From a virus, in IMG/VR virus record IMGVR_UViG_3300045988_064381, positions 1 to 41,393 of that record: DNA of 41,393 bases. One strand, given 5' to 3'. Below the pieces are notes generated by a model that was not told the DNA's origin, did no database searches, and worked only from the letters and a program-made list of their open reading frames with translations. This document shows positions 1 to 41,393 of this stretch, in pieces. The translations under genes and the position numbers were made by a program. Within the stretch, counting starts at the first letter, position 1; each line of letters opens with the position of its first letter.

Positions 1-55
1 GATGGCAAGGCTCATGTAGGTGGTGAGGCTCATATAGATGGCAAGGCTCATGTAG
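1..55. repeat. Terminal direct repeat, identical to 41339..41393
   Basis: A base-by-base comparison of gatggcaaggctcatgtaggtggtgaggctcatatagatggcaaggctcatgtag at both ends shows 55/55 identity. Confidence 0.95.
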
Positions 56-477
56 GTGGTGGGGCTCGTGTGAGTGACAGGGCTCGTGTAGGTGGTGGGG
101 CTTATGTCGGAGGATTCGCTTATGTAGGTGGTGAGGCTCGTGTGGGTGACAGGGCTTATGTAAGGGGCAACACTTGGGTAAGTGGCAAGGCTCATATAGA
201 TGGCAAGGCTCGTGTAAATGGCAACGCTTATATAGAGGGCGACGCTCGTATAAATGGTGAGGCTTGCTATACAACAATCAAGGGTTTTGGAACCGAATTT
301 AGAAATACAACCTTTTTCAGATGTAAAGACAATAAAATCAGGGTTCAATGTGGTTGCTTTTACGGAGATATTGACGAGTTCAGAGAGCAAGTCAAACGCA
401 CGAGAAACGGCAAAATCGCAAAAGAATATCTAATGATAGCTGACTTAATGGAATATCACTTTAGCGAGGAGAAATAA
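1..477 (+). CDS. C-terminal part of a hexapeptide (beta-helix-like) repeat protein; continues from 41063..41393 across the contig junction
   Basis: Frame 1 is open from nt 1. It carries 6-residue repeats G-x-A-x-[VI]-x (GKAHVGGEAHIDGKAHVGGGARV...), then a non-repeat tail (FRCKDNKIRVQCGCFYGDIDEF). Removing the 55-nt overlap joins both parts in frame (276 + 477 nt). Confidence 0.7.
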   Translation, partial: DGKAHVGGEAHIDGKAHVGGGARVSDRARVGGGAYVGGFAYVGGEARVGDRAYVRGNTWVSGKAHIDGKARVNGNAYIEGDARINGEACYTTIKGFGTEFRNTTFFRCKDNKIRVQCGCFYGDIDEFREQVKRTRNGKIAKEYLMIADLMEYHFSEEK

Positions 478-3620: not shown

Positions 3621-6137
3621 ATCAATTTTTACACTTATGACTTTGAGGTTTTTAAATATGATTGGATTGTTGTATTTAAAGACCACGAATCGGGTCGATA
3701 CACTGTTTTCCATAACGATAATGAGGGTTTTGCCGAGTTCATATCCGACACTGAGATTTACATCGGATTTAACTCAAAGCACTATGACCAATATATTGCA
3801 AAAGGTGTTGTCAGTGGATTCTCGCCCGAGGAATTAAAAGCCTTAAATGACTACCTAATTGAGGGATTCCAAGGTTGGCAATACCCACCATTGAATGACA
3901 GTTATTTTCGCCTAAACAACGTTGATATTCGTGACGATATGTACAAAGAGCTATCATTAAAAGCCATCGAGGGTCATCTAGGTATGGACATTGTGGAATC
4001 AAGTGTCGATTTTACCATAGATAGACCACTAACACAAGCTGAGATAGAAGAAGTTATTAAATACTGTAAGCACGATGTTGACGCAACAGAGAAGATTATA
4101 GAACTGAGAGAAGATTATATCATCACTAAAAAGAATCTCGGTCAGAGGGCGAATATACCTACACTAAAAGCTATATCTAGCACTAATGCCAAGCTAACAG
4201 CTCAAATGCTAGGTGCTAAGAGAAAGGAACGAAATGATGGTAGGGAGTATGTATTCCCGGAAAACCTAGACACATCAGTGATACCAAAAGAAATATTGGA
4301 TTTCTTTGAACAAATACACGATGATTCAATCCCTGATGACGAGCTTTTTAAAAAATCATTAGAGATTGAGGTCGCAGGTATGCCTTGCAAATTTGCATGG
4401 GGTGGTGTACACGGTAGTAAGCTGGGTTATTTCGAGCAACGACAAGGTACTAGAATCATCCAAAATCGAGATGTATCGAGCCTTTATCCGTCACTTATCG
4501 AGATATATAACTACATATCGAGAAACGTGGCTGACCCTCAAATATATTTTCAGATGAAGAGGGATAGGATCGAGGCGAAACATAATGGCGACACGCAGTT
4601 GGCGAAAGACTTGAAATTACCACTCAACACCTTATCGGGTGCACAGGAGAACGAATTTAATGACCTATATGATCCATTACCAACTAGGTCAATGAGAATC
4701 TCAGGTCAGCTATTTATCACAGTTCTACTGATGAGATTGGTAAATGAATGTAAAACCTTTATCCCACTCAATTTTAACACTGACGGATTGATGTACTCAA
4801 TCGATGAGAGCGAGTTACCAATCGTGGACAAAATATGTGCCGAGTGGGAAAAAGAAACAAAGTTTGAGCTGGAAACTGATGATATCCAAAAAGTGTGGAT
4901 AAAGGATGTAAATAATCTACTCTTTGTGGATATGTCAGGCAAAGTCAAAACTGTAGGTGCCTATCTAAACTATGGAATATCTGTAAAAGGACAATGGGCG
5001 ATTAACAATAGTGCTATCGCTGTTAAAAAAGCCATCATCGAATACATGGTAAATGGTACACCACCTGATGTGACAATCGCTGAAAACGACAACATTTTTG
5101 ATTATCAAATTATCGCCAAAGCTGGTTCAAAATTTGAGAGAGTATATCAGCTGGTCGATGGCGAGGAAGTGCCTATGCAAAAGGTGAATCGAGTGTATGC
5201 AACGGCAGACACTAGGCGAGGCAAATTATATAAGGTAAAGCGTGAAAATGGCTCTATCGCTAAGATAGAGAGCTTGCCTGATCACTGTATCGTTGACAAC
5301 AGTAATGAGCTGAGTATCAGCGATGTTGATAAAAGTTATTACATAGACCTAGCAAATCGTAAAATCGATGATTTTCGAGGGGTTAAGAGAACAAAGAAAG
5401 GAAAAACCAAAATGGCAACAAAGAAGAAAGATGAAATCGAAACAACAACACTCAATGTGTATCAGAAACTCAACAGAGCGAGAGCGATGTTTTTGGAAGA
5501 GAATATCAAAAAGACAGGCAAAAACATGCACCTAGCTTTTAAGTTCTTCGAGCTAGAGGACATTGTACCACCTGTTACACAGATTTTTAACACAGTCGGT
5601 CTTATCGGTATCGTGAGATTCTCAAACACAACAGCGACGATAACAATCACCAATACTGACGCACCTGATGACAAGATTGTATTCACATCACCATTTAAGG
5701 TGCTTGAACCTATCATCAGCAACACGGGTAAGCAGGCGACAAATGAAATGCAGTCTCTAGGTAGCTCAATTACCTATATGCGTAGATATCTATACATGAT
5801 TGCAATGGATATAGTCGAGAGTGATGACTTTGACGGAAGTGTCGGCTCGCCAAGTGATACATCTACAAAATCAGAATCACCTAAGAAAACTCGCCCAGCT
5901 ACAGTCGAGGAGCGTAAGGAGACAAAGAGTGAGCTAACGGCACCCGAGGATAATGCGACAGCACTACAGATTAAGGGATTGAAGAGAGTTCTAAAGGAAC
6001 TTAACACAAAGAACCCATCGGAAGAACCATACATCTCAAAAATCATCCTAGATTCTGAGAATTTTACAAATCTGACAAAGACCAAGTGCGAAGAATTGAC
6101 ACAGGAAGTCAGCAGTAAGCTAGAGAAACTAGGTTAA
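3621..6137 (+). CDS. Family B DNA polymerase (3'-5' exonuclease plus polymerase) continuing without a stop into an ERF-like domain; start codon unresolved
   Basis: My translation of the frame upstream of the track ORF is open back to 3621. It contains ExoI YDFEVF and ExoII GFNSKHYD. ExoIII YCKHDVDA, motif A DVSSLYPS, motif B KLPLNTLSG and motif C NFNTDG follow. The frame has no ATG, GTG or TTG between 3621 and 3891. Confidence 0.8.
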   Translation: MNFYTYDFEVFKYDWIVVFKDHESGRYTVFHNDNEGFAEFISDTEIYIGFNSKHYDQYIAKGVVSGFSPEELKALNDYLIEGFQGWQYPPLNDSYFRLNNVDIRDDMYKELSLKAIEGHLGMDIVESSVDFTIDRPLTQAEIEEVIKYCKHDVDATEKIIELREDYIITKKNLGQRANIPTLKAISSTNAKLTAQMLGAKRKERNDGREYVFPENLDTSVIPKEILDFFEQIHDDSIPDDELFKKSLEIEVAGMPCKFAWGGVHGSKLGYFEQRQGTRIIQNRDVSSLYPSLIEIYNYISRNVADPQIYFQMKRDRIEAKHNGDTQLAKDLKLPLNTLSGAQENEFNDLYDPLPTRSMRISGQLFITVLLMRLVNECKTFIPLNFNTDGLMYSIDESELPIVDKICAEWEKETKFELETDDIQKVWIKDVNNLLFVDMSGKVKTVGAYLNYGISVKGQWAINNSAIAVKKAIIEYMVNGTPPDVTIAENDNIFDYQIIAKAGSKFERVYQLVDGEEVPMQKVNRVYATADTRRGKLYKVKRENGSIAKIESLPDHCIVDNSNELSISDVDKSYYIDLANRKIDDFRGVKRTKKGKTKMATKKKDEIETTTLNVYQKLNRARAMFLEENIKKTGKNMHLAFKFFELEDIVPPVTQIFNTVGLIGIVRFSNTTATITITNTDAPDDKIVFTSPFKVLEPIISNTGKQATNEMQSLGSSITYMRRYLYMIAMDIVESDDFDGSVGSPSDTSTKSESPKKTRPATVEERKETKSELTAPEDNATALQIKGLKRVLKELNTKNPSEEPYISKIILDSENFTNLTKTKCEELTQEVSSKLEKLG
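5412..6137 (+). CDS. erf: ERF-family single-strand annealing protein, nested in frame in the 3' part of the polymerase ORF
   Basis: An internal ATG lies 9 nt after AGAAAGGA (5395-5402). Typical ERF features are the N-terminus LNVYQKLNRARAMF and the signature GSSITYMRRYLYMIAMDI. The C-terminal tail is acidic and Ser-rich. Confidence 0.65.
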   Translation: MATKKKDEIETTTLNVYQKLNRARAMFLEENIKKTGKNMHLAFKFFELEDIVPPVTQIFNTVGLIGIVRFSNTTATITITNTDAPDDKIVFTSPFKVLEPIISNTGKQATNEMQSLGSSITYMRRYLYMIAMDIVESDDFDGSVGSPSDTSTKSESPKKTRPATVEERKETKSELTAPEDNATALQIKGLKRVLKELNTKNPSEEPYISKIILDSENFTNLTKTKCEELTQEVSSKLEKLG

Positions 6138-6446: not shown

Positions 6447-7483
6447 AAGAAATTAGATGGGTCGATAATCATATAGAGATTGACCCCCCAAAGAGAACAA
6501 AGAAGATCACAGGAACTAGGTTCGCAACAATTTTAGGTAAAAATGTATGGGCGACACCTTTTCAGATGTGGTGTGCGATCACCAAAACTTATGAAGAACC
6601 TTTTGAGGGTACTATCTACACCGAGGCAGGTAAGACAATCGAACCTAAGCAGGCTGAATACATGCGTAAGGCATATGGTGTAAAAATCGTGACACCCGAG
6701 GATGTGTATGGAAAAGATTATTTTAGCAAAACTTGGGGTGACTTTTTCCCTAAGAACAAGCACCTCGGTGGTATGTGGGACTATCTAGGGCTAGATGAAG
6801 ATGGTGAGATAGATACCGTCTTTGAAATGAAAACCACAAAGCGAGTTGAGGATTGGAAAGACGACGTACCTGAATACTATTCATTGCAAGCGTCTTTGTA
6901 CGGATATTTGCTGGGGGTTGATGATATCGTAATGGTTGCGTCATTCCTAGAAGATAGTGACTATGAGCACCCCGAGAAGTTTAACCCAACTGTAAATAAC
7001 ACAATCACGGTTGAGTTTAAGATTTCAGAGAAATACCCGAACTTTGCTGAGATGGTGGCTGAGGCTGAGGCTTGGTGGAAGAACCATGTTGACACTGGCA
7101 TATCCCCGGATTTTGATGAAAAGGCTGACGCAGATTTCCTAAAGGCATTGAGGACAAATAGTCTATCACCTGACACAGATATCGACAGCTTAATCGCTGA
7201 GGGAGAATCGCTAAAATCTGAGATAGATGAGGTCACAAAGTCGATTGCAGATAAGGAAAAGCGATTAAAGAAAATCAATGATATCATCAAAAAACATGCT
7301 ACAGAGCAGTTTAGGGATGGTGATAAAAAGGTCGAAATTAAGGGAGCTACGTTCATCTGGACACTAACTAAGACAGAAAGCCAAAAGACCGTGTATGATG
7401 ATGACTTACTCAAATCTGATGGAGTATTTGACAAATACGCAAAAGTCGAACCTAGTGTGTCATATAGACTCGCAGTTAAGTAA
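6443..7483 (+). CDS. YqaJ-like (lambda Exo-type) recombination exonuclease with a coiled-coil C-terminal extension
   Basis: The N-terminus ITGTRFATILGKNVWATPFQMW is YqaJ-like and VFEMKTTK is an ExK-type nuclease motif. It sits next to the ERF annealase. Confidence 0.7.
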   Translation: MKEIRWVDNHIEIDPPKRTKKITGTRFATILGKNVWATPFQMWCAITKTYEEPFEGTIYTEAGKTIEPKQAEYMRKAYGVKIVTPEDVYGKDYFSKTWGDFFPKNKHLGGMWDYLGLDEDGEIDTVFEMKTTKRVEDWKDDVPEYYSLQASLYGYLLGVDDIVMVASFLEDSDYEHPEKFNPTVNNTITVEFKISEKYPNFAEMVAEAEAWWKNHVDTGISPDFDEKADADFLKALRTNSLSPDTDIDSLIAEGESLKSEIDEVTKSIADKEKRLKKINDIIKKHATEQFRDGDKKVEIKGATFIWTLTKTESQKTVYDDDLLKSDGVFDKYAKVEPSVSYRLAVK

Positions 7484-8001: not shown

Positions 8002-8415
8002 ATGAGAGTACCAATGAGAGATACATATCAGGTTTTACCCGAGGGCGAATACATCTTTTTAATCACGGATGTAAAAGAAGATGAGGACTTTGGAAAAATC
8101 GAAATAACCCTCGAAACTAAAGAGGGTAAAAAGCACCGTGAAAGATTTAGCCTAAAAACAGCCGATGATGAGTGGAATGAGGGTGCATTAAATGCGTTTT
8201 CATATTTTTGCAAAACAGCCACCCAAGATTGGGAATCTGAGGAGATTGATCCACAGTCACTCGTGGGTTGCTACATAAAAGCCGAGGTCGAGCACACAAT
8301 CGTACAGTCTAACAAGGACACAGGTAAGACCGTCACTTTCGCCAACTTAGGTGATAAATGGTCAGCAGATGGTTTTGACGGTCAAAGTGATTTAATGTCA
8401 GCACTAGATGACTAA
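8002..8415 (+). CDS. Hypothetical protein, possibly a DUF669-like replication-module protein
   Basis: AAGGAGA RBS. The N-terminal pattern YQVLPEGEYIFLITDVKE...GKIEITLE resembles DUF669-type proteins from memory; this is not verified. Confidence 0.5.
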   Translation: MRVPMRDTYQVLPEGEYIFLITDVKEDEDFGKIEITLETKEGKKHRERFSLKTADDEWNEGALNAFSYFCKTATQDWESEEIDPQSLVGCYIKAEVEHTIVQSNKDTGKTVTFANLGDKWSADGFDGQSDLMSALDD

Positions 8416-8424
8416 TATATCTAT

Positions 8425-8447
8425 GGGTGTGGGATTGTCTCACACCC
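8425..8447 (+). other. Stem-loop directly after a stop codon (10-bp stem, no U tract)
   Basis: gggtgtggga ttg tctcacaccc pairs with one G-U. The sequence downstream is AATATTAAG, so it is not a classical terminator. Confidence 0.4.
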
Positions 8448-8470
8448 AATATTAAGAAAAGGAGTTATGA

Positions 8471-8926
8471 ATGAAATACACCGAATTTATTAAGAAAATA
8501 TGTAAACTCGACTTTGCTGTTAATAATACGGATGACATGATAATTTGCACAGACATATACAGTGATAAACCTGTTATAAGTATATCTAAGATTTCCCAAA
8601 ACAGTATGGACATTAATATTTCAGCAAGAGCACTCACTGACACGATGGCGATTAAATGGGCGACAAAGCTCGCTAGAACACCTCTCAAAGATAGAGAGGG
8701 GTCGGCTCAATATGAAATTATGTTGCCTAATTTATTAACCTCGGCTGAAAACCATCAGTATATCACGGAATATAAAGGCTATTACTTTGTAAGTGCACCC
8801 TCATCTCAATACGGTAAACGAGTGTTCTCCGAATACGACATGTTGAATGTACCCAAAGAGTACCATGTTTTTGCCAAAGATATCGAGACAGGTGAACCAT
8901 ATATATCTGAGGGGGTATCACTATGA
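8471..8926 (+). CDS. Hypothetical protein
   Basis: A 151-aa ORF with a GGAG RBS, coupled to the next ORF by an ATGA overlap. Confidence 0.6.
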   Translation: MKYTEFIKKICKLDFAVNNTDDMIICTDIYSDKPVISISKISQNSMDINISARALTDTMAIKWATKLARTPLKDREGSAQYEIMLPNLLTSAENHQYITEYKGYYFVSAPSSQYGKRVFSEYDMLNVPKEYHVFAKDIETGEPYISEGVSL

Positions 8927-14474: not shown

Positions 14475-14600
14475 AAGTGGAAAACAGTAAAATAAGTGGA
14501 GTTTTATATAATTTTGGGAAAGTTTTATATATAGGGGTCTCTATAGGGGACTTTACCCAAAGTACCTCAGAACTCCACTTGTTATCACTTAACTCCACTT
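14475..14600. repeat. Inverted and direct repeat cluster (AAGTGGAGTT / AACTCCACTT) in the intergenic region upstream of terS
   Basis: AAGTGGA occurs at 14475 and AAGTGGAGTT at 14494. The reverse complement AACTCCACTT occurs at 14571 and 14591. AGTTTTATATA and TATAGGGG are each present twice in between. An AT-rich tract lies at 14450-14475. Confidence 0.8.
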
Positions 14601-15315
14601 GGAGAAAGAGAGGGTAAAATTGAGTATAGAGCATAATAATGTGTTACTAGATGAGAATGGTAAGCCTATGGTCGATGAGGATGGAGATATAATTAGAATC
14701 TCCCCTAGAACAGGTAAACCTGTGCAAAAGAAGTTCTCACCTAAGTATAAGGGTGGTAAGAAAAAGAAAAAATGCCCCAATAAGTCGAAGAATGGGAAGA
14801 ACTCTCCCGTGATCGGTATGAATGGTTATGACTTGCAACCGGGAGATAATACTAATACGATGATGGTGGGGATTGAGATATTCAACTTACCTGAAATCGA
14901 CTTTGATAATGTGGATGAGGTGAATCAGAGGATAAATGAGTTCTTTGGTATATATGCTAAGTATGATATGAAACCGACTGTTGTAGGATTGGCGATGTCA
15001 CTAGGGATAAGTAGGTACAAGCTGATGGCTATTGTTAATGATAGACCTATTAATAGTCAAGGGTACTATGCGAATGTAAACATTTCCGTTGCCACGTCAA
15101 TCAAAAAAGCACACAATCTTATGGAGAATATGTGGGAGCAATACATGACATCAGGTAAGATTAACCCGGTAGCTGGAATTTTCCTAGGAAAAAACAACTT
15201 TGGGTATGCTGACAAACAGGAACACGTGGTCACACCGAACACACAAAGAGACGACGACTTTAGCACCGAGGATATCAGAGCAAGATATTTACCACCGACT
15301 ATAGAAAACGACTAA
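14599..15315 (+). CDS. terS: Terminase small subunit with a Lys-rich N-terminal extension (start uncertain: TTG 14599 or TTG 14620)
   Basis: INEFFGIYAKYDMKPTVVGLAMSLGISRYKLMAIVND is a typical TerS HTH segment. GAGAGGG lies 5 nt before TTG 14620. Confidence 0.7.
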   Translation: MEKERVKLSIEHNNVLLDENGKPMVDEDGDIIRISPRTGKPVQKKFSPKYKGGKKKKKCPNKSKNGKNSPVIGMNGYDLQPGDNTNTMMVGIEIFNLPEIDFDNVDEVNQRINEFFGIYAKYDMKPTVVGLAMSLGISRYKLMAIVNDRPINSQGYYANVNISVATSIKKAHNLMENMWEQYMTSGKINPVAGIFLGKNNFGYADKQEHVVTPNTQRDDDFSTEDIRARYLPPTIEND

Positions 15316-15543
15316 GAAATTAAAAAACCACTAGCGACTATTCGTTAGTGGTATTTTTATGCGACTATATTTTGATTTTACGAATTACAACTCTTATATT
15401 ACGAACAACTATGGCTAGAACCTATCTAATTTAATTTTTAAGCGACTTTTATGCGACTATTGATAAAATTATCGACTATAAATAAAAAATCGCTTAAAAC
15501 TCAATTTTGAGCCTTAAACGACTTTTGTTTAAAAACGACTATA
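15309..15543 (+). repeat. Array of 8 same-orientation CGACT(A/T)(A/T)(A/T) repeats
   Basis: CGACT starts at 15309, 15335, 15362, 15443, 15454, 15473, 15519 and 15536. A 14-mer TTTTATGCGACTAT occurs twice (about 15355 and 15447). Confidence 0.8.
15327..15359 (+). terminator. Intrinsic terminator after terS
   Basis: The stem accactagcga / tcgttagtggt (one G-U) has loop ctat and is followed by ATTTTTAT. An A-run precedes it, so it may act in both directions. Confidence 0.6.
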
Positions 15544-15564
15544 AAACCTCTTCATGATCCGGGG

Positions 15565-15780
15565 CTATAAAAACTCTTTTCCTGATCCTCTATCTATCCA
15601 TGTAATCTTAATATCGCAGTCTAGGGCGTCGGCGATCTCCTCAAGTTCCTGAGTCCTAAAGTTATCGCGACTAAAGATTTGAAATAGATTAGAGGGTGAT
15701 TTATTTAGTCTCTTTGCTAAATCTGAGTTCTTGATCCCTTTATAGCCCATTATCATTTTTATAATTTTTGATTGTTCCAT
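15565..15780 (-). CDS. XRE-family HTH regulator (island repressor candidate)
   Basis: GIKNSDLAKRLNKSPSNLFQIFSR is an HTH segment. The RBS is GAGGAG. It is transcribed divergently from the 15997.. operon. Confidence 0.8.
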   Translation of the reverse strand: MEQSKIIKMIMGYKGIKNSDLAKRLNKSPSNLFQIFSRDNFRTQELEEIADALDCDIKITWIDRGSGKEFL

Positions 15781-15797
15781 TTTAGTATCTCCTCTTC

Positions 15798-15957
15798 ATT
15801 TTGTAATTAATAAAATACCATAAAAAATATATTTTGTCAAATATCATTATTTATTGTAAAAATAATGCTATATATAAAGGAAGAAAAAATATTTATTAAA
15901 AAATAAAAAATATGCTTGACAAAGTAAATAAAAAGGTGTATTATTTAATTACAAAAT
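15798..15957. promoter_or_regulatory. Divergent promoter/operator region with a 13-bp inverted repeat
   Basis: ATTTTGTAATTAA (15798-15810) is the exact reverse complement of TTAATTACAAAAT (15945-15957). A possible minus-strand promoter is TTGACA (complement of 15835-15840), a 17-nt spacer, then TATTTT. Confidence 0.5.
15916..15944 (+). promoter_or_regulatory. Sigma70-type promoter for the 15997-18604 operon
   Basis: TTGACA (15916-15921), a 17-nt spacer and TATTAT (15939-15944). An operator copy begins 1 nt downstream. Confidence 0.6.
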
Positions 15958-15996
15958 AAATAAAGTTAATTTTAAAATGAAAGTTGAGGTCATAAG

Positions 15997-16419
15997 ATGT
16001 TGTACAAAGAAATGAGCATATTTGATTTTGAACCGTGGAGTGGAGCAGTTAATACTTATGAGAGATTAAAGCGTGAGGATAAATTAGACGAGTTAGATAG
16101 CCTATTACCTGATATGTTTGGCAAAGATGCTGTTGAAGAAACTGAGCTAAATGATTTGTTATGGTTTGAGCCTGATACCGTGTATGAGCTTGTAGGCTTG
16201 CCTACAGAATCAGAGATTAGAGAGGATATTGAATATATTAACGAAAGAATAGAGGATGAGGAGAGTGCTATAAACGATTTAGAAATGGACATGACAGAAT
16301 ACGAAGAGGGCACAGGAAAATGGCAAGATATAGAAATTGAGATTTTTGAGAGATTGAAAGAAATAGAAAACTTGAAAGAGGAAAAACAAGAATTATTTTC
16401 AGAGCTTAACAGTTTATAA
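15997..16419 (+). CDS. Highly acidic hypothetical protein
   Basis: By my count about 44 of 140 residues are D/E against 13 K/R. It has a coiled-coil-like C-terminus and the motif FEPWSGAVNTYE. Confidence 0.65.
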   Translation: MLYKEMSIFDFEPWSGAVNTYERLKREDKLDELDSLLPDMFGKDAVEETELNDLLWFEPDTVYELVGLPTESEIREDIEYINERIEDEESAINDLEMDMTEYEEGTGKWQDIEIEIFERLKEIENLKEEKQELFSELNSL

Positions 16420-16432
16420 AAAGGTGGTTACA

Positions 16433-16792
16433 ATGTATTACGATTATTACAACGAAGTTAAAAACGATGTTATTGATTACATCAAAAATAATATTGATTT
16501 GTCAGAGTTTGATTCACTTGTAGATTTACAAGAATACTTATATGATGAGTTATTTGTAGAGGATAGTGTAACGGGTAACGGGTCCGGGAGTTATACAATG
16601 AGCAATCGAAAAGCGTGGGAATATGTTGGCGACAATTTGGATTTATTGGGGGATGCGTTGGAAGAGTTCGAAGAGGCAAGATATACATTATTACAAGGTG
16701 CAGAGGCGTGCGACGTTACTATTAGGTGTTATGTGTTGCCGGAGTGTATCGATAATGCACTAGATGAATTAATGGGAGAAAGTGAGGCGTAA
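16433..16792 (+). CDS. Acidic hypothetical protein
   Basis: ATG 16433 lies 5 nt after AAAGGTGG. By my count about 29 of 119 residues are D/E against 6 K/R. Motifs SVTGNGSGSYT and GAEACDVTIRCY are present. Confidence 0.6.
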   Translation: MYYDYYNEVKNDVIDYIKNNIDLSEFDSLVDLQEYLYDELFVEDSVTGNGSGSYTMSNRKAWEYVGDNLDLLGDALEEFEEARYTLLQGAEACDVTIRCYVLPECIDNALDELMGESEA

Positions 16793-16793
16793 C

Positions 16794-17096
16794 ATGTTAG
16801 AGTTCAGTAATATGATTGTGATAAACAGAAAACAGATCAAAATAATAAATAAGTATGAAGTTTGCCCGGTCGGGACTCAAAAATCATTTTATGGAAAAGC
16901 GAAAATATTGGAGCTAGCGAACGGGATGAAGATATTAAAAAGCTATGACACATTGATCTTGATCCAAGATGGTGACAGATTTATGAGGCTGTGGGATGGT
17001 TGGAGTGCTACAACAGGCAAGCACATATATTCATTCTGTGGAATACGTAAAAAGGATTTTGTCAAGCTAACATGTGATGAATGGTGTGAGGTGTAA
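16794..17096 (+). CDS. Hypothetical protein
   Basis: ATG 16794 follows GTGAGG. It carries the motif SFYGKAKILE...SYDTLI...WSATTGKHIYSF, for which I know no function. Confidence 0.55.
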   Translation: MLEFSNMIVINRKQIKIINKYEVCPVGTQKSFYGKAKILELANGMKILKSYDTLILIQDGDRFMRLWDGWSATTGKHIYSFCGIRKKDFVKLTCDEWCEV

Positions 17097-17098
17097 CA

Positions 17099-17392
17099 AT
17101 GATGGATGTTATAGATAAAATATATAGTGTGCTGTATGAAGTCGATAGGTGCAGAGGGTCATACTTTTGGCGTCCTGCCAGTAGTGCAAGCACAAGGCGA
17201 CACAATGAGCGAAAACATAATATAGAGCCTTTTGAATGGTCAGAGGGTGGGGACACTTACACAGCCGGGTTCATTTATGAAGAGAGTTGTAACAACGTAT
17301 ATGCTTATGGTGTCTATACAAAGAATGGCAATAAAACAACACTAACAGCCATCAAGAATAGTTTGAAGAGGATGGAAAAGAAAGGAATATAA
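17099..17392 (+). CDS. Hypothetical protein
   Basis: A 97-aa ORF immediately after the previous stop. Confidence 0.55.
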   Translation: MMDVIDKIYSVLYEVDRCRGSYFWRPASSASTRRHNERKHNIEPFEWSEGGDTYTAGFIYEESCNNVYAYGVYTKNGNKTTLTAIKNSLKRMEKKGI

Positions 17393-17396
17393 AGAG

Positions 17397-17957
17397 ATGG
17401 GAACGATTAATCTAGCAAGAGGAAATATAATTACATTAGGGTATGTCACGGACGAATATATATCAGATGATGAGTTGAGGGAATGGGCTACAGAGGAGTT
17501 TGGAATAAATGAGTATTTACAAGAGTTATATACATTAGAGGGTTATATTAAGCTTAGAGCTCAAGAGGCGTACAGTGAAATGATATTTGATTGGGAATAT
17601 GATTGCGCTAGCGAGTGCAAGAGTGCAATAGATAGGCTAATACTATCTACTGATTGGATAGGCGTGAGGGTCGAACCCGGATATTATAGCGGGTTTTCGG
17701 TAGTAGTTAATATTGAACCAAGGGAGTATTTTGATGATTACAATGAAAAAGAAATGGCGATGGATGACGTGAAAGACGTTCAAAAATTATTAGAAAAGTT
17801 ACTTGATAATTACGGCGTAAATGTTGTATATCCCGGTTGGGTTGAAACATGGCTAAATTATGAGGAATCAAAGAAAGCTATTAAAAAGGCGATGGCTGAA
17901 TTAAGGCGTCAAATAAAGGCGATTCCGTGTTGGTCAAGATATAGAAAGGTGGTTTAA
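17397..17957 (+). CDS. Hypothetical protein
   Basis: A 186-aa ORF, tightly packed. Confidence 0.6.
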   Translation: MGTINLARGNIITLGYVTDEYISDDELREWATEEFGINEYLQELYTLEGYIKLRAQEAYSEMIFDWEYDCASECKSAIDRLILSTDWIGVRVEPGYYSGFSVVVNIEPREYFDDYNEKEMAMDDVKDVQKLLEKLLDNYGVNVVYPGWVETWLNYEESKKAIKKAMAELRRQIKAIPCWSRYRKVV

Positions 17958-17958
17958 A

Positions 17959-18537
17959 ATGGTTACAAAAGGCTATTTAATTAGAGGTGCATACCACTAT
18001 GACGATGAACGATATCATAGAAATAAAGAAAGTTTTGAGCCATCACACTACAACGATTTTACGGGTTACCGTGAGGGCGATGGTGTGCGAATAATTAGGG
18101 TGTTGAATAGTGATATACTAGGTACAAACGATTACAACATTGTTATAATTGCAAGAGAAACAGCAACGCAGTGCGATGATGAGATGTTTGGTCAGTGGTC
18201 TGATGGTATATTTGAAAATTGTAATGTTGAATCGCCTACAGAGTTAGGAGCAGAAGAGACACAAAAATATATTGAGATGTTTGATTCATACAATCGCAAT
18301 AGGTTTGTGGATGTCTCAAATTGTAATAAAATGATGGATAGCTTAGACGGTCTCAAAGAGCTGATCACATCCTTATCGCTTGAGCTAATAAACAATATCG
18401 GCAAAGAATACGGCGAACATTATCGTGGACAGCTTAGCACATTGTTGCAAGATGTGGGCGACATCTTATATAATATTCGTGAGGTAGCTACAAGACAAAG
18501 AGACAATACAAATTATATTAGTCAAAGGAGTGTTTAG
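17959..18537 (+). CDS. Hypothetical protein
   Basis: A 192-aa ORF with a GGTGG RBS. Confidence 0.6.
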   Translation: MVTKGYLIRGAYHYDDERYHRNKESFEPSHYNDFTGYREGDGVRIIRVLNSDILGTNDYNIVIIARETATQCDDEMFGQWSDGIFENCNVESPTELGAEETQKYIEMFDSYNRNRFVDVSNCNKMMDSLDGLKELITSLSLELINNIGKEYGEHYRGQLSTLLQDVGDILYNIREVATRQRDNTNYISQRSV

Positions 18538-18538
18538 A

Positions 18539-18604
18539 ATGATACTACTAGCAATCATATTATTTCCAATAGCTTTATTACTGGATTTAGCGAAAAAATC
18601 ATAA
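18539..18604 (+). CDS. Possible 21-aa hydrophobic peptide
   Basis: AAGGAG (18525-18530) lies 8 nt upstream of the ATG. The product is MILLAIILFPIALLLDLAKKS. It ends 6 nt before the terminator. Confidence 0.3.
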   Translation: MILLAIILFPIALLLDLAKKS

Positions 18605-18610
18605 CAGTGT

Positions 18611-18636
18611 ACCACCCTCTAAAGGGTGGTTTTTTA
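18611..18636 (+). terminator. Intrinsic terminator ending the island operon
   Basis: accaccc tctaaa gggtggt followed by TTTTTT. Confidence 0.85.
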
Positions 18637-18678
18637 GTGCTCAGATTTATACATTTACTTAATGGGTGTAGCTGTAGA

Positions 18679-18696
18679 ATCTAATCTTGATTAGAT
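18679..18696. repeat. Perfect 18-bp palindrome ATCTAATC-TT-GATTAGAT in a locally GC-richer non-coding stretch
   Basis: Read directly from the sequence. GGGTATACCC (18704-18713) and several GGGG/CCCC stems follow. Confidence 0.8.
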
Positions 18697-18814
18697 GTAT
18701 AAAGGGTATACCCGTGGGGGATAGCTGCCCCGGTCAGCCACCTCGGGTTAGTTGCTTAAATTCCCCAAAAAATTAAAAAGGCTTATAAAAGATAAATTTA
18801 CAACACATTTAGTA

Positions 18815-18843
18815 TTGACATAATATCATCATAGTGCTATACT
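18815..18843 (+). promoter_or_regulatory. Near-consensus sigma70 promoter with an extended -10
   Basis: TTGACA, a 17-nt spacer ending in TGc, then TATACT. AGAGAGGTG RBS and ATG 18866 follow. Confidence 0.7.
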
Positions 18844-18865
18844 ACACATAAAGAGAGGTGAAAAC

Positions 18866-19075
18866 ATGATATTAAACAACATAGAACTAGATGTAAAGGT
18901 CAAATGCTTAGAGGCAGATATGACCCAAGAAGATTTGGGGTCAGCCATTGGTACAACAGGTCAGTATATCAATCGAATCATCAAGCAAAAGAAAGACGGA
19001 ATCGTCAATAAGACTTTTGTATCGATGTTAGAGGCATTAGGATATGATATTGAGTTGACATATATAAAGCGATAA
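18866..19075 (+). CDS. XRE-family HTH protein
   Basis: MTQEDLGSAIGTTGQYINRIIKQK is an HTH segment. The C-terminal LEALGYDIELTYIKR parallels ADALDCDIKITWIDR of the 15565-15780 protein. Confidence 0.8.
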   Translation: MILNNIELDVKVKCLEADMTQEDLGSAIGTTGQYINRIIKQKKDGIVNKTFVSMLEALGYDIELTYIKR

Positions 19076-19118
19076 GGTGCAAATATTTTTGCATATAGTG
19101 AAGAGGGGGTGTATTCCT

Positions 19119-19868
19119 ATGAAGAAAGCGATAGCGTATATAAGAGTATCTACAGAGGGTCAGTTTGGTGATGATAAGTACGGTGTTGATTCTCAGAAAC
19201 AGGCGATTTTGGATTTTGCGAACGAGCAGGGTTATCAGATACAGAATTGGTATATTGATAAAATTAGTGGTACGACTGAGGAGAGACCTGAACTTGATAA
19301 GATTCTGTATAGACCTGATGAATTGCCACAGCATGAGGCAGTGATTGTGTTTAAGAGCGACAGAATCGCTAGAGATACTAAATTATATTTCTATTACTTT
19401 TACACCCTCGAAAAGCGTAATATTAAGCTCTTATCGTCGGTTGAGCAGTTTGATGAGGGTAATGATTTTGCGAATATCTATAGGTCGCTACTGATGTTTG
19501 TGGCAGAACAGGAGCGTAAAAATATTGCTCTAAGAACTAGCAAGGGGCGTCAGCTAAAGGCTCAGTGTGGGGGATATTCAGGTGGAAATAAGCCATATGG
19601 ATATAGTGTGCTAGATGGGGTGTTGACCATTAACCCAAGTGAGCGAGGGGTAGTAGAACTTATTTTTAAGAACAAGTCATTGCCATTATCTGATATTTGT
19701 GATATATTACAGGAGAATGGATATAAAACCCGTAAGGATAAGAGATTCCAACCATCCACGGTTAGAAGTATCTTGCAGAATGAGAAATTTTATCAGGGTT
19801 TTTACAAGTATGGTGGCTCGAATTGGGTCAAAGGGGTGCATACCCCGATATTGATGGGGGCGTGCTAA
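19119..19868 (+). CDS. Truncated large-serine-recombinase homolog: catalytic and recombinase domains only, no zinc ribbon or coiled coil
   Basis: AIAYIRVSTEGQ carries the catalytic Ser motif, and a recombinase-domain segment GGNKPYGY...FQPSTVRSILQNEKFYQG follows. The ORF stops after GVHTPILMGAC, where full-length enzymes such as 38067..39602 continue for about 250 aa more. Confidence 0.75.
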   Translation: MKKAIAYIRVSTEGQFGDDKYGVDSQKQAILDFANEQGYQIQNWYIDKISGTTEERPELDKILYRPDELPQHEAVIVFKSDRIARDTKLYFYYFYTLEKRNIKLLSSVEQFDEGNDFANIYRSLLMFVAEQERKNIALRTSKGRQLKAQCGGYSGGNKPYGYSVLDGVLTINPSERGVVELIFKNKSLPLSDICDILQENGYKTRKDKRFQPSTVRSILQNEKFYQGFYKYGGSNWVKGVHTPILMGAC

Positions 19869-20312
19869 ATGTCAAGGTCAAAGAAAATTGCGAATATAAT
19901 TGGTATCATTTTCGCCATTATTATTGTAGTGGGTCTTATAGGTTGTATCACCATTAGTTTTTTGGGAGAGAGTGGGTTTATAAAAGCACCCACGCCCGAT
20001 ATAGATACAATCAATGCAATCGATATCATGGATAAATATGCTGAAAATCAATATAATGCTGAGAAGTTATATAACGACGAGCGATTTAGGACAACAGCCA
20101 CTATTGAAAATATCGGTGGGGATATAAACATCGTTGGTGGAATAGAGTTGACTATGATTGCTGAAAAAGACGGTAGAACTGAGCAATTCTATGCGTATTT
20201 TAGAGATAATCAACGAGATGAAATAGCAAAATTAAAGGTGGGGGATAAACTTACATTTGATGGGACTATTTTGAACGGTAAGATTTGGAAAGAGTGTAGT
20301 ATAGTAAAATAA
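19869..20312 (+). CDS. Predicted lipoprotein with an OB-fold (tRNA_anti-like) ectodomain; superinfection-exclusion candidate
   Basis: The N-terminal hydrophobic segment ends in a lipobox-like LIGC. The pattern YNAEKLYNDERF...KLKVGDKLTFDGTILNG...ECSIV resembles tRNA_anti-like OB-fold proteins from memory. Confidence 0.55.
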   Translation: MSRSKKIANIIGIIFAIIIVVGLIGCITISFLGESGFIKAPTPDIDTINAIDIMDKYAENQYNAEKLYNDERFRTTATIENIGGDINIVGGIELTMIAEKDGRTEQFYAYFRDNQRDEIAKLKVGDKLTFDGTILNGKIWKECSIVK

Positions 20313-20331
20313 TATAAGAAGTTTAGATTAG

Positions 20332-20368
20332 GGGCGTTATCGCATAAGCGATAGCGTCTTTTTCTTTT
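20332..20368 (+). terminator. Intrinsic terminator immediately upstream of terL
   Basis: The imperfect stem gggcgttatcgc / gcgatagcgtc is followed by TTTTTCTTTT. Confidence 0.6.
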
Positions 20369-20377
20369 GGGGGTTAA

Positions 20378-22015
20378 ATGGGGATATTAGGTAAAATTAA
20401 GAAAGAGATTGAAGTAAATCCTGAAAATGTACAAGCATATGAAGATTATTACTATATATGCAAAGAGGATATATTTAAAGATAAAGAGGGTGTGATTTCT
20501 AAGCTCAAATGGTTATCAGATGAGATTGAAAAGAATATAAGCGAGATTGCCGATAATGAGGAAATGCTCAGATTGTATCGCATACATAAGCGAGTATTGT
20601 TGGTATTAGCACCTTGGGATTTTGAAAGCTACATGTTATATGTGGAATGGGAGCGTGACCCGGATAAAAAGTTTTACATACCAAGGCGTAAGGCATTACA
20701 TGACGTGGTGAAGTCATTACAAGATTTGGCAGATGATAAGTTAGATATATTGTCAATCAGTTTACCACCGGGCGTTGGGAAGAGTACACTTGCAATATTT
20801 TATTTAACATGGATAGCTGGTCGAGAACCCAATAAGCCGTCTCTAATCGGTTCACATTCCAATTCGTTCATTCGAGGTGCTTATGATGAGTGTTTGCGAA
20901 TATTAGATCCATCAGGGGAATATTTATGGAGCGATGTGTTTTCGGGTTTATCAGTCACTAGCACTAATGCCAAGGATTGTCGAATCGATATTGATAGACG
21001 ACAAAGATTTGAGACATTGGAGTTTACATCGGTCGGCACGGGTAATGCTGGATTGTATAGAGCAATGAGCCTATTATATTGTGACGATCTTGTATCGGGA
21101 CTAGAAGTAGCACTATCGAAAGAGCGATTGGATAAGTTGTGGGGAGTATACACAACCGACCTTAGACAGCGAAAGCAAGGTAGTAAGTGTAAGGAGCTAC
21201 ATATCGCTACAAGATGGTCAGTGCACGATGTTATAGGACGACTAGAGCGTGAATATGGGGGTAACGAGCGAGCAAAATTCATACGAGTTCCTGCTATGGA
21301 TGAGAATGATGAATCTAATTTTTTCTATCCATACGATGTTGGATTTACCACAGAGCAATATCGAGAGCAACGAGAAATCATGGATGAGGCGTCATGGAAA
21401 GCTGTATACATGAATGAACCTATTGAGCGAGAGGGTCTATTGTACAATGAAGAGGAGCTAAGGCGATACTTTGAATTACCTGATGGCGAACCCGACGCAA
21501 TTATAGGAGTATGCGATACGAAAGATAAGGGTAAGGACTATGCGTTTTTGCCAGTTGGATATAAATTTGGAAATGATTACTATATTGAGGATTGTGTATG
21601 TGACAACAGCCTACCACATATTGTAGACGCTCGGCTAGTTGCAGTATTGATGATTAACGATGTTCAGATGTGTCGGTTCGAGAGTAATTCAGCTGGGGGG
21701 AGAATAGCTGAGAAAGTAAATAAGGAGATAAAAGAGAGAGGTGGTAATACTCGAATCACCACGAAATATACCACAGCAAACAAAGAAACCAAAATCATAG
21801 TTAATAGTGGTTGGGTCAAAGAGCATTGCCTATTTAAAGATAAGAGTATGTATAAGCGACAGAGTGACTATGGCAAAATGATGGATATGCTATGCTCTTA
21901 TACGGTGGTAGGTAAAAATACACATGACGACGTACCTGATGGAATGGCAATGTTTTCGGAGTTCGCCCAATCTATCACAAATGGTAAGATTGAAGTATTT
22001 GGGCGTCCAATTTAA
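20378..22015 (+). CDS. terL: Terminase large subunit
   Basis: The Walker A-like LPPGVGKST, its size (545 aa) and its position before the portal gene support this call. Confidence 0.9.
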   Translation: MGILGKIKKEIEVNPENVQAYEDYYYICKEDIFKDKEGVISKLKWLSDEIEKNISEIADNEEMLRLYRIHKRVLLVLAPWDFESYMLYVEWERDPDKKFYIPRRKALHDVVKSLQDLADDKLDILSISLPPGVGKSTLAIFYLTWIAGREPNKPSLIGSHSNSFIRGAYDECLRILDPSGEYLWSDVFSGLSVTSTNAKDCRIDIDRRQRFETLEFTSVGTGNAGLYRAMSLLYCDDLVSGLEVALSKERLDKLWGVYTTDLRQRKQGSKCKELHIATRWSVHDVIGRLEREYGGNERAKFIRVPAMDENDESNFFYPYDVGFTTEQYREQREIMDEASWKAVYMNEPIEREGLLYNEEELRRYFELPDGEPDAIIGVCDTKDKGKDYAFLPVGYKFGNDYYIEDCVCDNSLPHIVDARLVAVLMINDVQMCRFESNSAGGRIAEKVNKEIKERGGNTRITTKYTTANKETKIIVNSGWVKEHCLFKDKSMYKRQSDYGKMMDMLCSYTVVGKNTHDDVPDGMAMFSEFAQSITNGKIEVFGRPI

Positions 22016-22164: not shown

Positions 22165-23613
22165 TTGGCACACGAAATAGATACATCTAAGCCTAGACTA
22201 GAGGCAAAACAATTAAATGGTAGACGTGTCATTAAAGTAGGTGCGTCAAAGGTTACGAGCGATAATGTGCTTAGTATTTTGGAAAAGGTTGAAATTGACC
22301 ACGATTTGAATCGTAGCGAGATTGACTATCTATACAAATACTATAAAGGCGACCAACCAATTAGATATAGACATAAGGAAATCCGTGAGGATATTTGTAA
22401 CAAGATTGTTGAAAATAGAGCGAATGAAATCGTGGCATTTAAGGTCGGCTATCTTTGTGGTGAGCCCATTCAATATGTTAGCAGAAATGGTGGCGAAACA
22501 GTTGTCGAAGAGATTAACAGACTGAACGAGTTGATGTTCGCTGAGGATAAGGCAAGCCAAGATCAAGAGCTTGTTGAGTGGCAGATGATTTGTGGCACAG
22601 CATACAGATTGGTGTTGGCAGATAAACCCGAGGAAGTCGATGACAGCCCATTTGAGATGTACACATTAGACCCTAGAGATACATATGTTGTTTACTCGAA
22701 TGAAATTGGCGATAAGCCATTGCTAGCTGTTAAAGAGCGTGTCGATGAGGATGGTAGAGTATTCAAATCGGTCTATACCGACACAGATTATTATAGGATT
22801 TGTGATGGTGAAATTATCGAATCGAAAAAGCACATACTTGGGATGATTCCAATATTTGAGTACCCTGCTAACAATTCAAGGTTGGGTGCATTTGAAATCG
22901 TGCTACCACTATTGGACGCAATAAACACAGTCGATAGCAATCGTATGGATGGAGTGGAGCAGTTTGTACAAGCATACTGGAAGTTTGTAGGGTGTGATAT
23001 AGATATCGATGACTTTAAGAAATTCCTCGAGGCGGGTGCGATTAAGATTCCACCTAATAGTCAAGGTGGAAATATAGATGTTGACCTTATTGTAAAAGAG
23101 TTAAATCAAGTACAAGTACAGACTTTGAAGAATGATATGTATCAGTCGGTACTCACAATATGTGGTATGCCTAATCGTAATGGTGGCACATCCACAAGTG
23201 ATACAGGGTCGGCAGTTGTGTTACGAGATGGTTGGTCGGACGCTGAGGCGAGAGCTAAAGACAGTGAGAATGTATTTAAGCGTTCAGAGAAACGAATGTT
23301 GAAGTTAGTTCTCAAAATTTGTCGAGATATGGGTGGTATGACACTCAGATTGAAAGATATAGACATGCGATTCACACGTCGAAACTATGAGGCAGTACAG
23401 AGCAAGTCACAGGTGCTAATCTCAATGTTAAATAACAAGATGATTCACCCACAGCTAGCATTTTCTCACAGTGGCTTGTTTACCGATAGCGAATCGGCAT
23501 ACACAATGAGCATGGACTATTACAATCAACATAAAGACGATGAAACGGAAACCACCGTTTTAGATAGTGACATCAGAGAAGATGTAAAAACACAAAATAC
23601 TACAGAGAAGTAA
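22165..23613 (+). CDS. Portal protein (SPP1 gp6-like), TTG start
   Basis: It is 482 aa and follows terL. YLYKYYKGDQPI is a typical portal N-terminal motif. AGAGAGGG RBS. Confidence 0.85.
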   Translation: MAHEIDTSKPRLEAKQLNGRRVIKVGASKVTSDNVLSILEKVEIDHDLNRSEIDYLYKYYKGDQPIRYRHKEIREDICNKIVENRANEIVAFKVGYLCGEPIQYVSRNGGETVVEEINRLNELMFAEDKASQDQELVEWQMICGTAYRLVLADKPEEVDDSPFEMYTLDPRDTYVVYSNEIGDKPLLAVKERVDEDGRVFKSVYTDTDYYRICDGEIIESKKHILGMIPIFEYPANNSRLGAFEIVLPLLDAINTVDSNRMDGVEQFVQAYWKFVGCDIDIDDFKKFLEAGAIKIPPNSQGGNIDVDLIVKELNQVQVQTLKNDMYQSVLTICGMPNRNGGTSTSDTGSAVVLRDGWSDAEARAKDSENVFKRSEKRMLKLVLKICRDMGGMTLRLKDIDMRFTRRNYEAVQSKSQVLISMLNNKMIHPQLAFSHSGLFTDSESAYTMSMDYYNQHKDDETETTVLDSDIREDVKTQNTTEK

Positions 23614-23647
23614 AAACACAAAGAATCAGAGAAGATGTAAAAACACA
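23572..23647 (+). repeat. Three tandem copies of a unit of about 26 nt across the portal stop codon
   Basis: ATCAGAGAAGATGTAAAAACACA is exact at 23572-23594 and 23625-23647. A middle copy, CAGAGAAG-TAAAAACACA (23603-23620), lacks ATG and supplies the portal TAA. Confidence 0.85.
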
Positions 23648-23660
23648 GAAAGAGGGTATT

Positions 23661-38041: not shown

Positions 38042-38068
38042 AAATCCCACTAATAATTAGTGGGATTT
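38042..38068. terminator. Bidirectional terminator (27-bp perfect palindrome) between the convergent endolysin and integrase genes
   Basis: AAATCCCACTAAT A ATTAGTGGGATTT. T-runs follow on both strands (ACCTTTTT on +, TTTTCCTTT on -). Confidence 0.6.
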
Positions 38069-41066: not shown

Positions 41067-41393
41067 AGAAATATGAACTAACGACCGATACGAAAGTTAT
41101 TTTTGGCAAGAAGTATTTTAGGATAAGAGCTCTTGTAGATTTTGGCACTGTATTGAAAGGAGACTTGGGTGGTTACATCGAAAGTGAGGACAATTTACCA
41201 AACGACACCAAATATGGAGAGGCTTGGGTAGGTGGCAACGCTCGTGTAGATGGCGAGGCTTGGGTAGATGGCAACGCTCGTGTAGATGGCGAGGCTTGGG
41301 TAGATGGTGACGCTTATGTAGGTGGTGAGGCTCATATAGATGGCAAGGCTCATGTAGGTGGTGAGGCTCATATAGATGGCAAGGCTCATGTAG
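41063..41393 (+). CDS. N-terminal part of the hexapeptide repeat protein; runs off the window end and continues at 1..477
   Basis: ATGA overlap start. It begins MKKYELTTDTKVIFGKKYFRIRALVDFGTVLKGDLGGYIESEDNLPNDTKYGEAWVGGNARVDGEAWVDG... and has no stop before 41393. It is missing from the ORF track. Confidence 0.7.
   Translation, partial: MKKYELTTDTKVIFGKKYFRIRALVDFGTVLKGDLGGYIESEDNLPNDTKYGEAWVGGNARVDGEAWVDGNARVDGEAWVDGDAYVGGEAHIDGKAHVGGEAHIDGKAHV
41339..41393. repeat. Terminal direct repeat, identical to 1..55
   Basis: 55/55 identity; it lies inside 18/36-nt coding tandem repeats. Confidence 0.95.

Follow-up and report, generated by a model that had tools for sequence, protein, structure and literature searches.

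In the phage genome held by IMG/VR as virus record IMGVR_UViG_3300045988_064381, the small and large terminase genes, terS and terL, are 5,062 bp apart with three terminators in between. The genome is complete, temperate and of siphovirus type, and it makes up the whole window analysed here (41,393 nucleotides). We propose that the terS–terL interval is probably an ancestral, position-fixed accessory bay of this phage lineage and not an insertion. The distance from the terS stop to the terL start is 3,185–5,211 bp (median 4,141 bp) in 45 of 45 relative loci, the two genes are adjacent in none of them, and no empty site was found. The original prediction, a model's first reading of this DNA, had located the genes 5.06 kb apart and described a non-packaging accessory block with its own promoters, regulators and terminators. 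Both points hold, the former through matches to the PF16677 family and phrog_38. It had also taken the block for a foreign module or the remnant of an integrated element, and that part fell to the gapped relatives, the lack of attachment (att)-like repeats and an intact recombinase.

The terS–terL interval across relatives

A gap between the terminase genes is a property of the lineage. Relatives were found in IMG/VR through TerL; of the 142 found, 80 were taken in, with TerL 67–98% identical. Gap lengths refer to the 45 loci that hold both genes, and clustering of the open reading frames (ORFs) in the gap to 46 loci. Clostridium phage Maintenon, whose TerL is 45% identical, has a 2.65-kb gap with small ORFs and two tRNAs. 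The hosts of prophage relatives are gut Bacillota (Faecalibacterium, Lachnospiraceae, Catenibacterium, Acutalibacteraceae). A nucleotide search against GenBank phages gave no match, so the phage has no close cultured relative there.

The bay has two parts. ORF clustering of the 46 gaps separates a hypervariable left from a conserved right. Alignment, which the original prediction had proposed as a check on adjacency, shows synteny with near relatives breaking at about 16.2 and 18.5 kb; colinearity is lost between these points, while the flanks are 85–96% identical. Left-half genes are exchanged even where flank identity reaches 93–99%. Left-part genes are missing from the near relatives, reordered, or merely 44–66% identical. 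Other subclades carry different cargo in the bay, including ParE/DUF6290, DUF5067 lipoproteins and glycine-zipper proteins. Among loci without the right-hand cassette described below (L011, L012, L014), the gap holds a minus-strand pair of ParE toxin and DUF6290 genes (for example L012:2125-2418). Locus L077 has three related long palindromic elements across the bay (5108-5186, 7208-7297 and 8382-8474), two of which bracket variable ORFs.

Searches of the interval returned little of known kind. Repeat scans found no att-like direct repeats flanking it beyond short chance matches. As originally predicted, Pfam and PHROGs searches linked no ORF in it to a family of packaging or virion proteins. 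Rfam (the window at gathering thresholds, the interval at E <= 1) and a tRNA scan found nothing, and Rfam on four related loci was equally blank. Compared with plasmids, the ORFs gave just two weak matches, so we see no tie to conjugative elements. A literature search turned up no account of such a layout, nor of a recombinase next to terL. The original prediction had allowed that close relatives might all share the block and that it might serve packaging. Relatives do hold a block at the same place, with the right-hand cassette in 43 of 46, but its left-hand content varies and no packaging role is evident for any ORF in it.

The flanking genes belong to the terminase families expected of them. 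The terS product scores 29.1 bits against PF16677 (GP3_package, Pfam), 0.3 bits short of the cut-off of 29.4, and all 24 aligned TerS homologues of the clade match this family (best E 5e-11). Neither TerS nor TerL matched any sequence in the PDB. One trait of the P22 gp3 type, terS beside terL in a single operon, is absent from the window.

Proposed organization of the bay

We propose two transcription units behind a repeat array (Table 1). A CGACTWT array at the 3' end of terS would be the packaging (pac) site, bound by TerS. Beyond it, the leftward repressor XRE1 would face a strong rightward promoter driving six small ORFs whose content turns over fast; this operon probably acts early, on the host or against host defences. 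A conserved cassette of GC-rich element, promoter, XRE2, recombinase and envelope-protein gene would then behave as a moron expressed from the prophage, where its lipoprotein probably alters the cell surface or excludes other phages. Each unit would be closed by an intrinsic terminator, and terL would be reached by read-through or antitermination.

Table 1. Features of the terS–terL interval and its borders, in window coordinates
Feature	Position	Strand	Basis or remark
Palindromic element just 5' of terS, outside the bay	14491–14601		Inverted repeat I1; AAGTGGAGTT ... AACTCCACTT boxes
terS, small terminase, P22 gp3 type	14599–15315	+	PF16677, phrog_606
Nine same-strand CGACTWT copies over the terS 3' end and intergenic region	15255–15542	+	Candidate pac site
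Predicted intrinsic terminator 3' of terS	15327–15352	+	11-bp stem, then T run
Terminator-like hairpin of leftward xre1	15485–15526	-	19-pair stem, then T run
xre1, 71-aa Cro/CI-type HTH regulator	15565–15780	-	HTH_26 at 33.2 bits; phrog_4 repressor
Predicted divergent promoter region	15795–15960		Minus-strand promoter 15840–15812; plus-strand promoter 15916–15944; inverted TTGTAATTAA boxes
140-aa ORF, very acidic, net charge -31	15997–16419	+	phrog_5149; N-terminal homologues in Enterococcus phages
122-aa ORF, acidic, net charge -23, all-helical	16424–16792	+	>1,800 homologue clusters, none named
104-aa ORF, DUF8033 family	16782–17096	+	phrog_4264, phrog_5643; PF26096 on identical gene of another contig
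97-aa ORF	17099–17392	+	No family match; in 5 of 46 loci
186-aa ORF, acidic	17397–17957	+	45 homologue clusters, none named
192-aa ORF, acidic	17959–18537	+	No family match; in 3 of 46 loci
Predicted intrinsic terminator closing the six-ORF operon	18611–18630	+	8-bp GC-rich stem, then TTTTTT
Conserved GC-rich non-coding element heading the cassette	18700–18790		Sequence conservation across the clade
Predicted near-consensus sigma-70 promoter, extended -10	18815–18843	+	TTGACA-17-TATACT with TG, 11/12
xre2, 69-aa HTH_3 regulator	18866–19075	+	Profile match (HTH_3)
Short serine recombinase, 249 aa from ATG	19119–19868	+	Catalytic and recombinase domains; in-frame GTG at 19077
Predicted lipoprotein, 147 aa, tRNA_anti-like OB domain; variable cargo slot	19869–20312	+	PF12869 at 30.1 bits
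Predicted strong hairpin (terminator 20330–20361), T tract and ribosome-binding site directly before the terL start	20330–20371	+	Consensus scan
terL, large terminase	20378–22015	+	phrog_38 at 5e-55; tblastn matches to annotated TerLs

The left-hand operon is headed by a divergent control region. Promoters and terminators were predicted by consensus scan of the sequence, which reproduced the promoters at 15916 and 18815 and the three terminators of the original prediction and added a leftward promoter and terminator. The 15916 promoter (TTGACA-17-TATTAT) matches sigma-70 at 11 of 12 positions. Inverted TTGTAATTAA boxes at 15795-15810 and 15945-15960 (inverted repeat I23, 16 nt, 94% complementary) cover both predicted transcription starts and are plausible XRE1 operators. 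The xre1 product is 87–93% identical in near relatives, and xre1 is the sole credible minus-strand gene outside the lysogeny module. This had been foreseen, as had the two XRE regulators, now supported by helix-turn-helix (HTH) matches to HTH_26 and HTH_3.

The operon encodes small, mostly acidic proteins. Its six ORFs are spaced by -11 to +4 bp, and four encode acidic proteins (net charge -13 to -31). An independent gene caller found the same ORFs on another contig that encodes the identical 186-aa protein. Homologues are scattered as "hypothetical proteins" in Bacteroides, Clostridium, Enterococcus and Staphylococcus phages, and those of the DUF8033 ORF sit in the terminal-repeat region of Staphylococcus Kayviruses. 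The 122-aa product, with an isoelectric point of 4.05, is small and strongly acidic like DNA mimics of the Ocr/ArdA type. Its AlphaFold2 (AF2) model is all-helical at a predicted local distance difference test (pLDDT) score of 93, and the highest TM-score in its PDB search went to the DNA mimic Ocr (8q56_B), at just 0.41–0.44 with E=6, so the modelled likeness to Ocr is a lead only.

The right-hand cassette has a constant order and a variable end. Of the 46 viral loci, 43 carry it, and it also occurs in further contigs and, upstream of terL, in 10 of 12 genome loci. After the GC-rich element and promoter come small HTH genes (one to three), then the serine recombinase gene and, at the end, a variable gene. 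The GC-rich element and promoter head it in nearly all relatives, whatever the first gene or recombinase type, and the pattern TTGACA-17-TGCTATACT is kept at the 18815 promoter. Within the element, relatives share CCCCCGGAGGGGGA ... GGGAGGGAGT ... TTAAATTCCCCAAAA ... AAAAAG. Two candidate roles for the element were tried and rejected. As an RNA it gave -0.03 kcal/mol in RNAalifold with two invariant pairs. As a cos end it has 8 of 43 contig ends within about 200 bp, but their positions are scattered and look like assembly breaks at the boundary of variable and conserved sequence.

The genes of the cassette differ in how well they are kept. The xre2 product is 52–99% identical in most relatives. 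Six near relatives (L002, L003, L005, L006, L008 and L009) have about 175 bp extra between xre2 and the recombinase gene, with a 54-aa acidic ORF (L002:8516-8697); the window (19069-19075) and L004 are without this insert. In the window, the last gene of the cassette encodes the lipoprotein of the original prediction, for which a signal peptide with an LIGC lipobox can be read off the sequence beside the OB domain. The same slot in relatives holds a DUF5067 lipoprotein or a glycine-zipper membrane protein. Subclade L010-L014 lacks XRE2 and the recombinase, and the GC palindrome is also absent where checked, so the recombinase is not essential to the lineage.

The short serine recombinase appears to be intact, functional and selected. 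It matches PF00239 (Resolvase) at 99 bits, with the serine-nucleophile motif YIRVST, and PF07508 (Recombinase) at 34.5 bits over model positions 3-64. Its closest solved relative is the TP901-1 integrase catalytic domain (3bvp, E 3e-10), and residues 2-226 are 30% identical to the phage's own integrase. The protein stops at about the end of the recombinase domain. It has no PF13408 zinc-ribbon match and no coiled coil, whereas the phage's own integrase has a zinc ribbon. The original prediction had called the gene truncated. The zinc-ribbon and coiled-coil part is indeed missing, but the gene is not decayed: it belongs to a family of about 250 aa with its catalytic residues kept. Among the best 120 homologue clusters (61–100% identical), lengths run from 244 to 304 aa with a median of 253, and 119 of 120 representatives retain the RxST motif. 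An independent gene caller also starts the protein at the ATG, giving 249 aa. Compared with seven near relatives, the ratio of nonsynonymous to synonymous substitution (dN/dS) is 0.00–0.01 at dS 0.14–0.28, tighter than in terL (0.03–0.07) or the portal gene. These rates point to very strong purifying selection on a gene that is no decay product.

The repeat array lies where a pac site might be expected. The direct repeats reported originally are nine CGACTWT copies within 290 bp, all in one orientation at the end of terS; the remaining 41 kb hold seven further plus-strand copies (Poisson P ~5e-18 for the cluster). At the 3' end of terS, 45 of 46 loci have their densest plus-strand CGACT cluster, with 7–12 copies per 300 bp; L028 alone has just 3, and minus-strand density never exceeds 4. 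In 46 of 46 loci the densest cluster starts between -292 and +205 relative to the terS stop. Bases around the core vary by subclade (CGACTAT, CGACTTT, AGCGACTC), the pattern expected from a co-evolving binding protein, with TerS the obvious candidate. The pac sites of P1 and SPP1 are clusters of short repeats. We regard the array as the best pac-site candidate, bound by TerS, and put the chances of this near even; a replication origin or another protein-binding array is a possible alternative.

The leader of terL closes the bay. Of 50 unique relatives, 48 have a hairpin, T tract and GGAGG immediately ahead of the terL start, and the stems are partly conserved (GCGTTATCGC...). The hairpin could be an insulating terminator or a control element of the leader. 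In the window its T tract stops 7 bp short of the start codon, a space that fits no promoter, so that terL and the structural genes would be reached by read-through or antitermination of an upstream transcript.

Competing explanations

Several observations weigh against an old accessory bay with this layout. The reading offers no reason for the retention of a recombinase at this precise spot. We infer expression in the lysogen, operator binding and read-through from consensus scans. No function for a cargo ORF came from PADLOC, which for all interval proteins gave just weak generic HTH matches and no known defence system, nor from structure comparison, since of two confident models the 122-aa one has no significant match among PDB folds and the 186-aa one (AF2 pLDDT 84.5) has no match there either. 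The CGACT array of L102 is found about 1.65 kb beyond terS and not at its end, which weakens the link between array and terS; the array may therefore be an origin or serve another binding protein. Finally, no other 5-kb stretch departs as far from the genome's tetranucleotide usage as the interval does (0.27 vs 0.21 +/- 0.025). This deviation makes some horizontal origin of the contents likely, though the bay itself is old; composition gives such an origin mild support.

The same composition, with a GC content of 35.7% vs 39.0% for the genome, would also suit a recent foreign insert of the whole 5 kb, or the remnant of an integrated element with a decayed recombinase, between once adjacent terS and terL. 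So would the interval's own promoters, regulators and terminators, its recombinase gene, and a left half that differs between close relatives. Against it stand the 45 relatives without adjacent genes, the lack of flanking repeats beyond chance, and a recombinase that is intact, of the same length as its family and at dN/dS ~0.01. The compositional check suggested originally came out divided: the interval is the top tetranucleotide outlier, but GC at third codon positions (GC3) of its ORFs lies inside the genome range. For this genome we consider a foreign insert largely refuted and very improbable. In a narrower version, the right-hand cassette alone would be a small autonomous element, or the descendant of one, that its own recombinase moved and that colonized the terL leader early on. 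A family member (P0045) on a bacterial chromosome argues for it. There the cassette (L094:7276-9337; also L095-L097 and L108), flanked by an acetyltransferase gene and tsaD and far from any phage gene in view, consists of GC-rich element, promoter, XRE gene, recombinase and GRAM-domain gene, and is 72–75% identical in nucleotides to phage cassettes from the GC-rich element to the recombinase stop. The absence of XRE and recombinase genes from subclade L010-L014, and of the GC palindrome where checked, would fit such mobility too. However, P0045 is the only one of 120 representatives with substitutions in its catalytic motifs (IQVSA for IRVST, PEQER for AEQER). Its reading frame is intact, and 224 collection blocks index a protein identical to it; the substitutions suggest a relic or domesticated copy rather than proof of cassette mobility. 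No empty site was found for the stand-alone cassette, and the single further metagenome match also carries it. In phages the cassette keeps one fixed position, and its GC-rich element stays constant while the recombinase type changes, making it unlikely to be the recombinase's own site. We judge an autonomous element unlikely.

The fixed position could instead reflect work on phage DNA, with the recombinase cyclizing or resolving DNA near pac, as Cre/loxP does in P1, or aiding the initiation of packaging. A serine recombinase lies 0.07–1.5 kb upstream of terL in nearly all clade members, and the pac-like array precedes it by 2.5–4 kb. No gene in the neighbourhood is under tighter constraint, and in some contigs it directly abuts terL, the usual place of terS. 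At least three subfamilies occupy the slot: besides the window type, other members carry Resolvase-domain proteins of about 190 aa in two further subfamilies (types B and C), and the subfamilies are 25–33% identical to the window type and to one another. Yet the gene is dispensable in L010-L014, the window has no repeated candidate site, Erf-like and RecE-like proteins are available for cyclization beside a bona fide TerS, and a related, catalytically altered copy persists without any terminase. We consider such a processing role quite improbable. The related idea that the recombinase has been kept before terL through repeated replacement by unrelated subfamilies, for a position-dependent step such as cyclization or resolution near pac or packaging initiation, strikes us as decidedly unlikely; if true, proteins of about 250 aa with only catalytic and recombinase domains would be a functionally distinct class of serine recombinase. 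The recombinase might also flip the cassette or its promoter as a phase-variable segment. The search for paired res- or hix-like sites turned up a single bracket, a perfect inverted repeat of 11 bp whose arms (CTATACTACAC, 18837-18847; GTGTAGTATAG, 20294-20304) enclose xre2 and the genes for the recombinase and the lipoprotein. It overlaps the -10 box and is also seen in L002 and L009, and the Joint Genome Institute (JGI) label of one family member is "DNA invertase Pin-like". By our estimate, however, chance alone would give about four such 11-bp repeats in 6 kb. L005 does not have the repeat, and the relatives with it are so closely related that they do not count as independent. All seven near-relative alignments are colinear with no inverted variant, and scans around the recombinase in 25 loci gave no inverted-repeat pair that brackets a segment at a conserved position. 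HTH_7, a domain of Hin/Gin invertases, is missing from the window protein; in place of the short C-terminal HTH of the resolvase/invertase class, whose members have about 180–200 aa, it has a recombinase domain, and among the slot types a weak C-terminal HTH match appears in type C and not in type B. An invertible segment is scarcely credible. An ancestral accessory bay thus remains the reading we favour.

Genome context and known systems

The rest of the genome fits a temperate phage with headful packaging. The lysogeny module encodes a 511-aa large serine integrase (38067-39602), and the phage carries its own replication genes with Erf-like and RecE-like proteins, which together with a gp3-type TerS fit packaging in the style of P22. 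The portal after terL is of SPP1 type, and a 26-nt repeat of about three copies spans the 3' end of its gene and the sequence just past it (23572-23651). Both ends of the window (3-271 and 41197-41393) lie inside one 18-nt (six-codon) tandem-repeat array overlapping the first ORF (70-477), consistent with a circular genome or assembly opened within a repetitive gene. The endolysin (36723-38006) has Amidase_2 and three CWB2 cell-wall-binding repeats, which point to host wall proteins presumably anchored through CWB2.

A palindrome marks the upstream border of terS in most relatives. It is about 110 nt long with invariant AAGTAGT-N2-AAGTAGT boxes on both arms, and relative genomes usually hold two copies, one before terS and one beside the recombinase (for example L017:5153-5266 and L017:8498-8607). 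Across 38 sequences the arms do not vary, as a DNA site bound by a protein would be expected to behave, and less so an RNA. In the window there is a single diverged copy (AAGTGGAGTT / AACTCCACTT) and no second one.

Accessory and moron regions of phages are a well-known kind; the placement at the terminase junction, the conservation and the repeatedly replaced recombinase are unusual. Lambdoid morons and the P22 immI/sieA region, which is embedded among late genes, are self-contained units among essential genes, with variable content and cargo that is often an envelope or exclusion protein. The bay resembles them in each respect. It has its own promoters and terminators, with two 11/12 promoters and three terminators bracketing two units, and its content is dispensable and variable in related phages (46 loci). 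Unlike them, it splits the terminase genes, keeps a fixed position across the clade and sets a conserved regulator/recombinase core beside variable cargo.

Other phages tolerate extra genes at this junction. T7 genes 18.5 and 18.7 lie between genes 18 and 19. Lactococcal 936-type phages have an HNH endonuclease gene, present or absent, between terS and terL (PMC6105707). Contiguity of terS and terL is thus not required. In those phages the extra DNA is one or two genes of <1 kb in one operon, whereas the bay has 3–5 kb, 10 genes, two promoters and three terminators.

Phage P1 has pac repeats with cre/loxP a few kilobases away; Cre, a tyrosine recombinase, acts at a known site and serves the plasmid prophage. 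The window likewise has short oriented repeats at the small-terminase gene and a site-specific recombinase gene a few kilobases downstream. Its enzyme, unlike Cre, is a serine recombinase, and integration falls to another protein of the phage, the large serine integrase. The short recombinase shares homologous catalytic and recombinase domains with large serine recombinases such as TP901-1 Int and the phage's own integrase. Those enzymes are about 450–700 aa long and contact the outer half-site through a zinc ribbon and a coiled coil, which also determine directionality; the protein of the bay, at 249 aa, has neither. Its neighbour recalls the Ltp-type superinfection-exclusion lipoproteins of temperate Streptococcus phages (PMC3952083), which are likewise prophage-borne and encoded in an independently transcribed slot. 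The two are unrelated in sequence: the window lipoprotein has a tRNA_anti-like OB domain, and its gene stands beside terL and not in the lysogeny module.

These results bear on how a widespread lineage of uncultured gut Bacillota phages should be annotated. Its terS and terL are not to be expected adjacent, and the DNA between them is not to be called an insertion. For locating pac and the control of late genes in the lineage, the conserved CGACT array, GC-rich element and hairpin ahead of terL offer candidate sites. The bay itself is a catalogue of swappable cargo, with acidic small proteins, toxin-antitoxin pairs and envelope proteins, and a place to seek anti-defence and exclusion functions.

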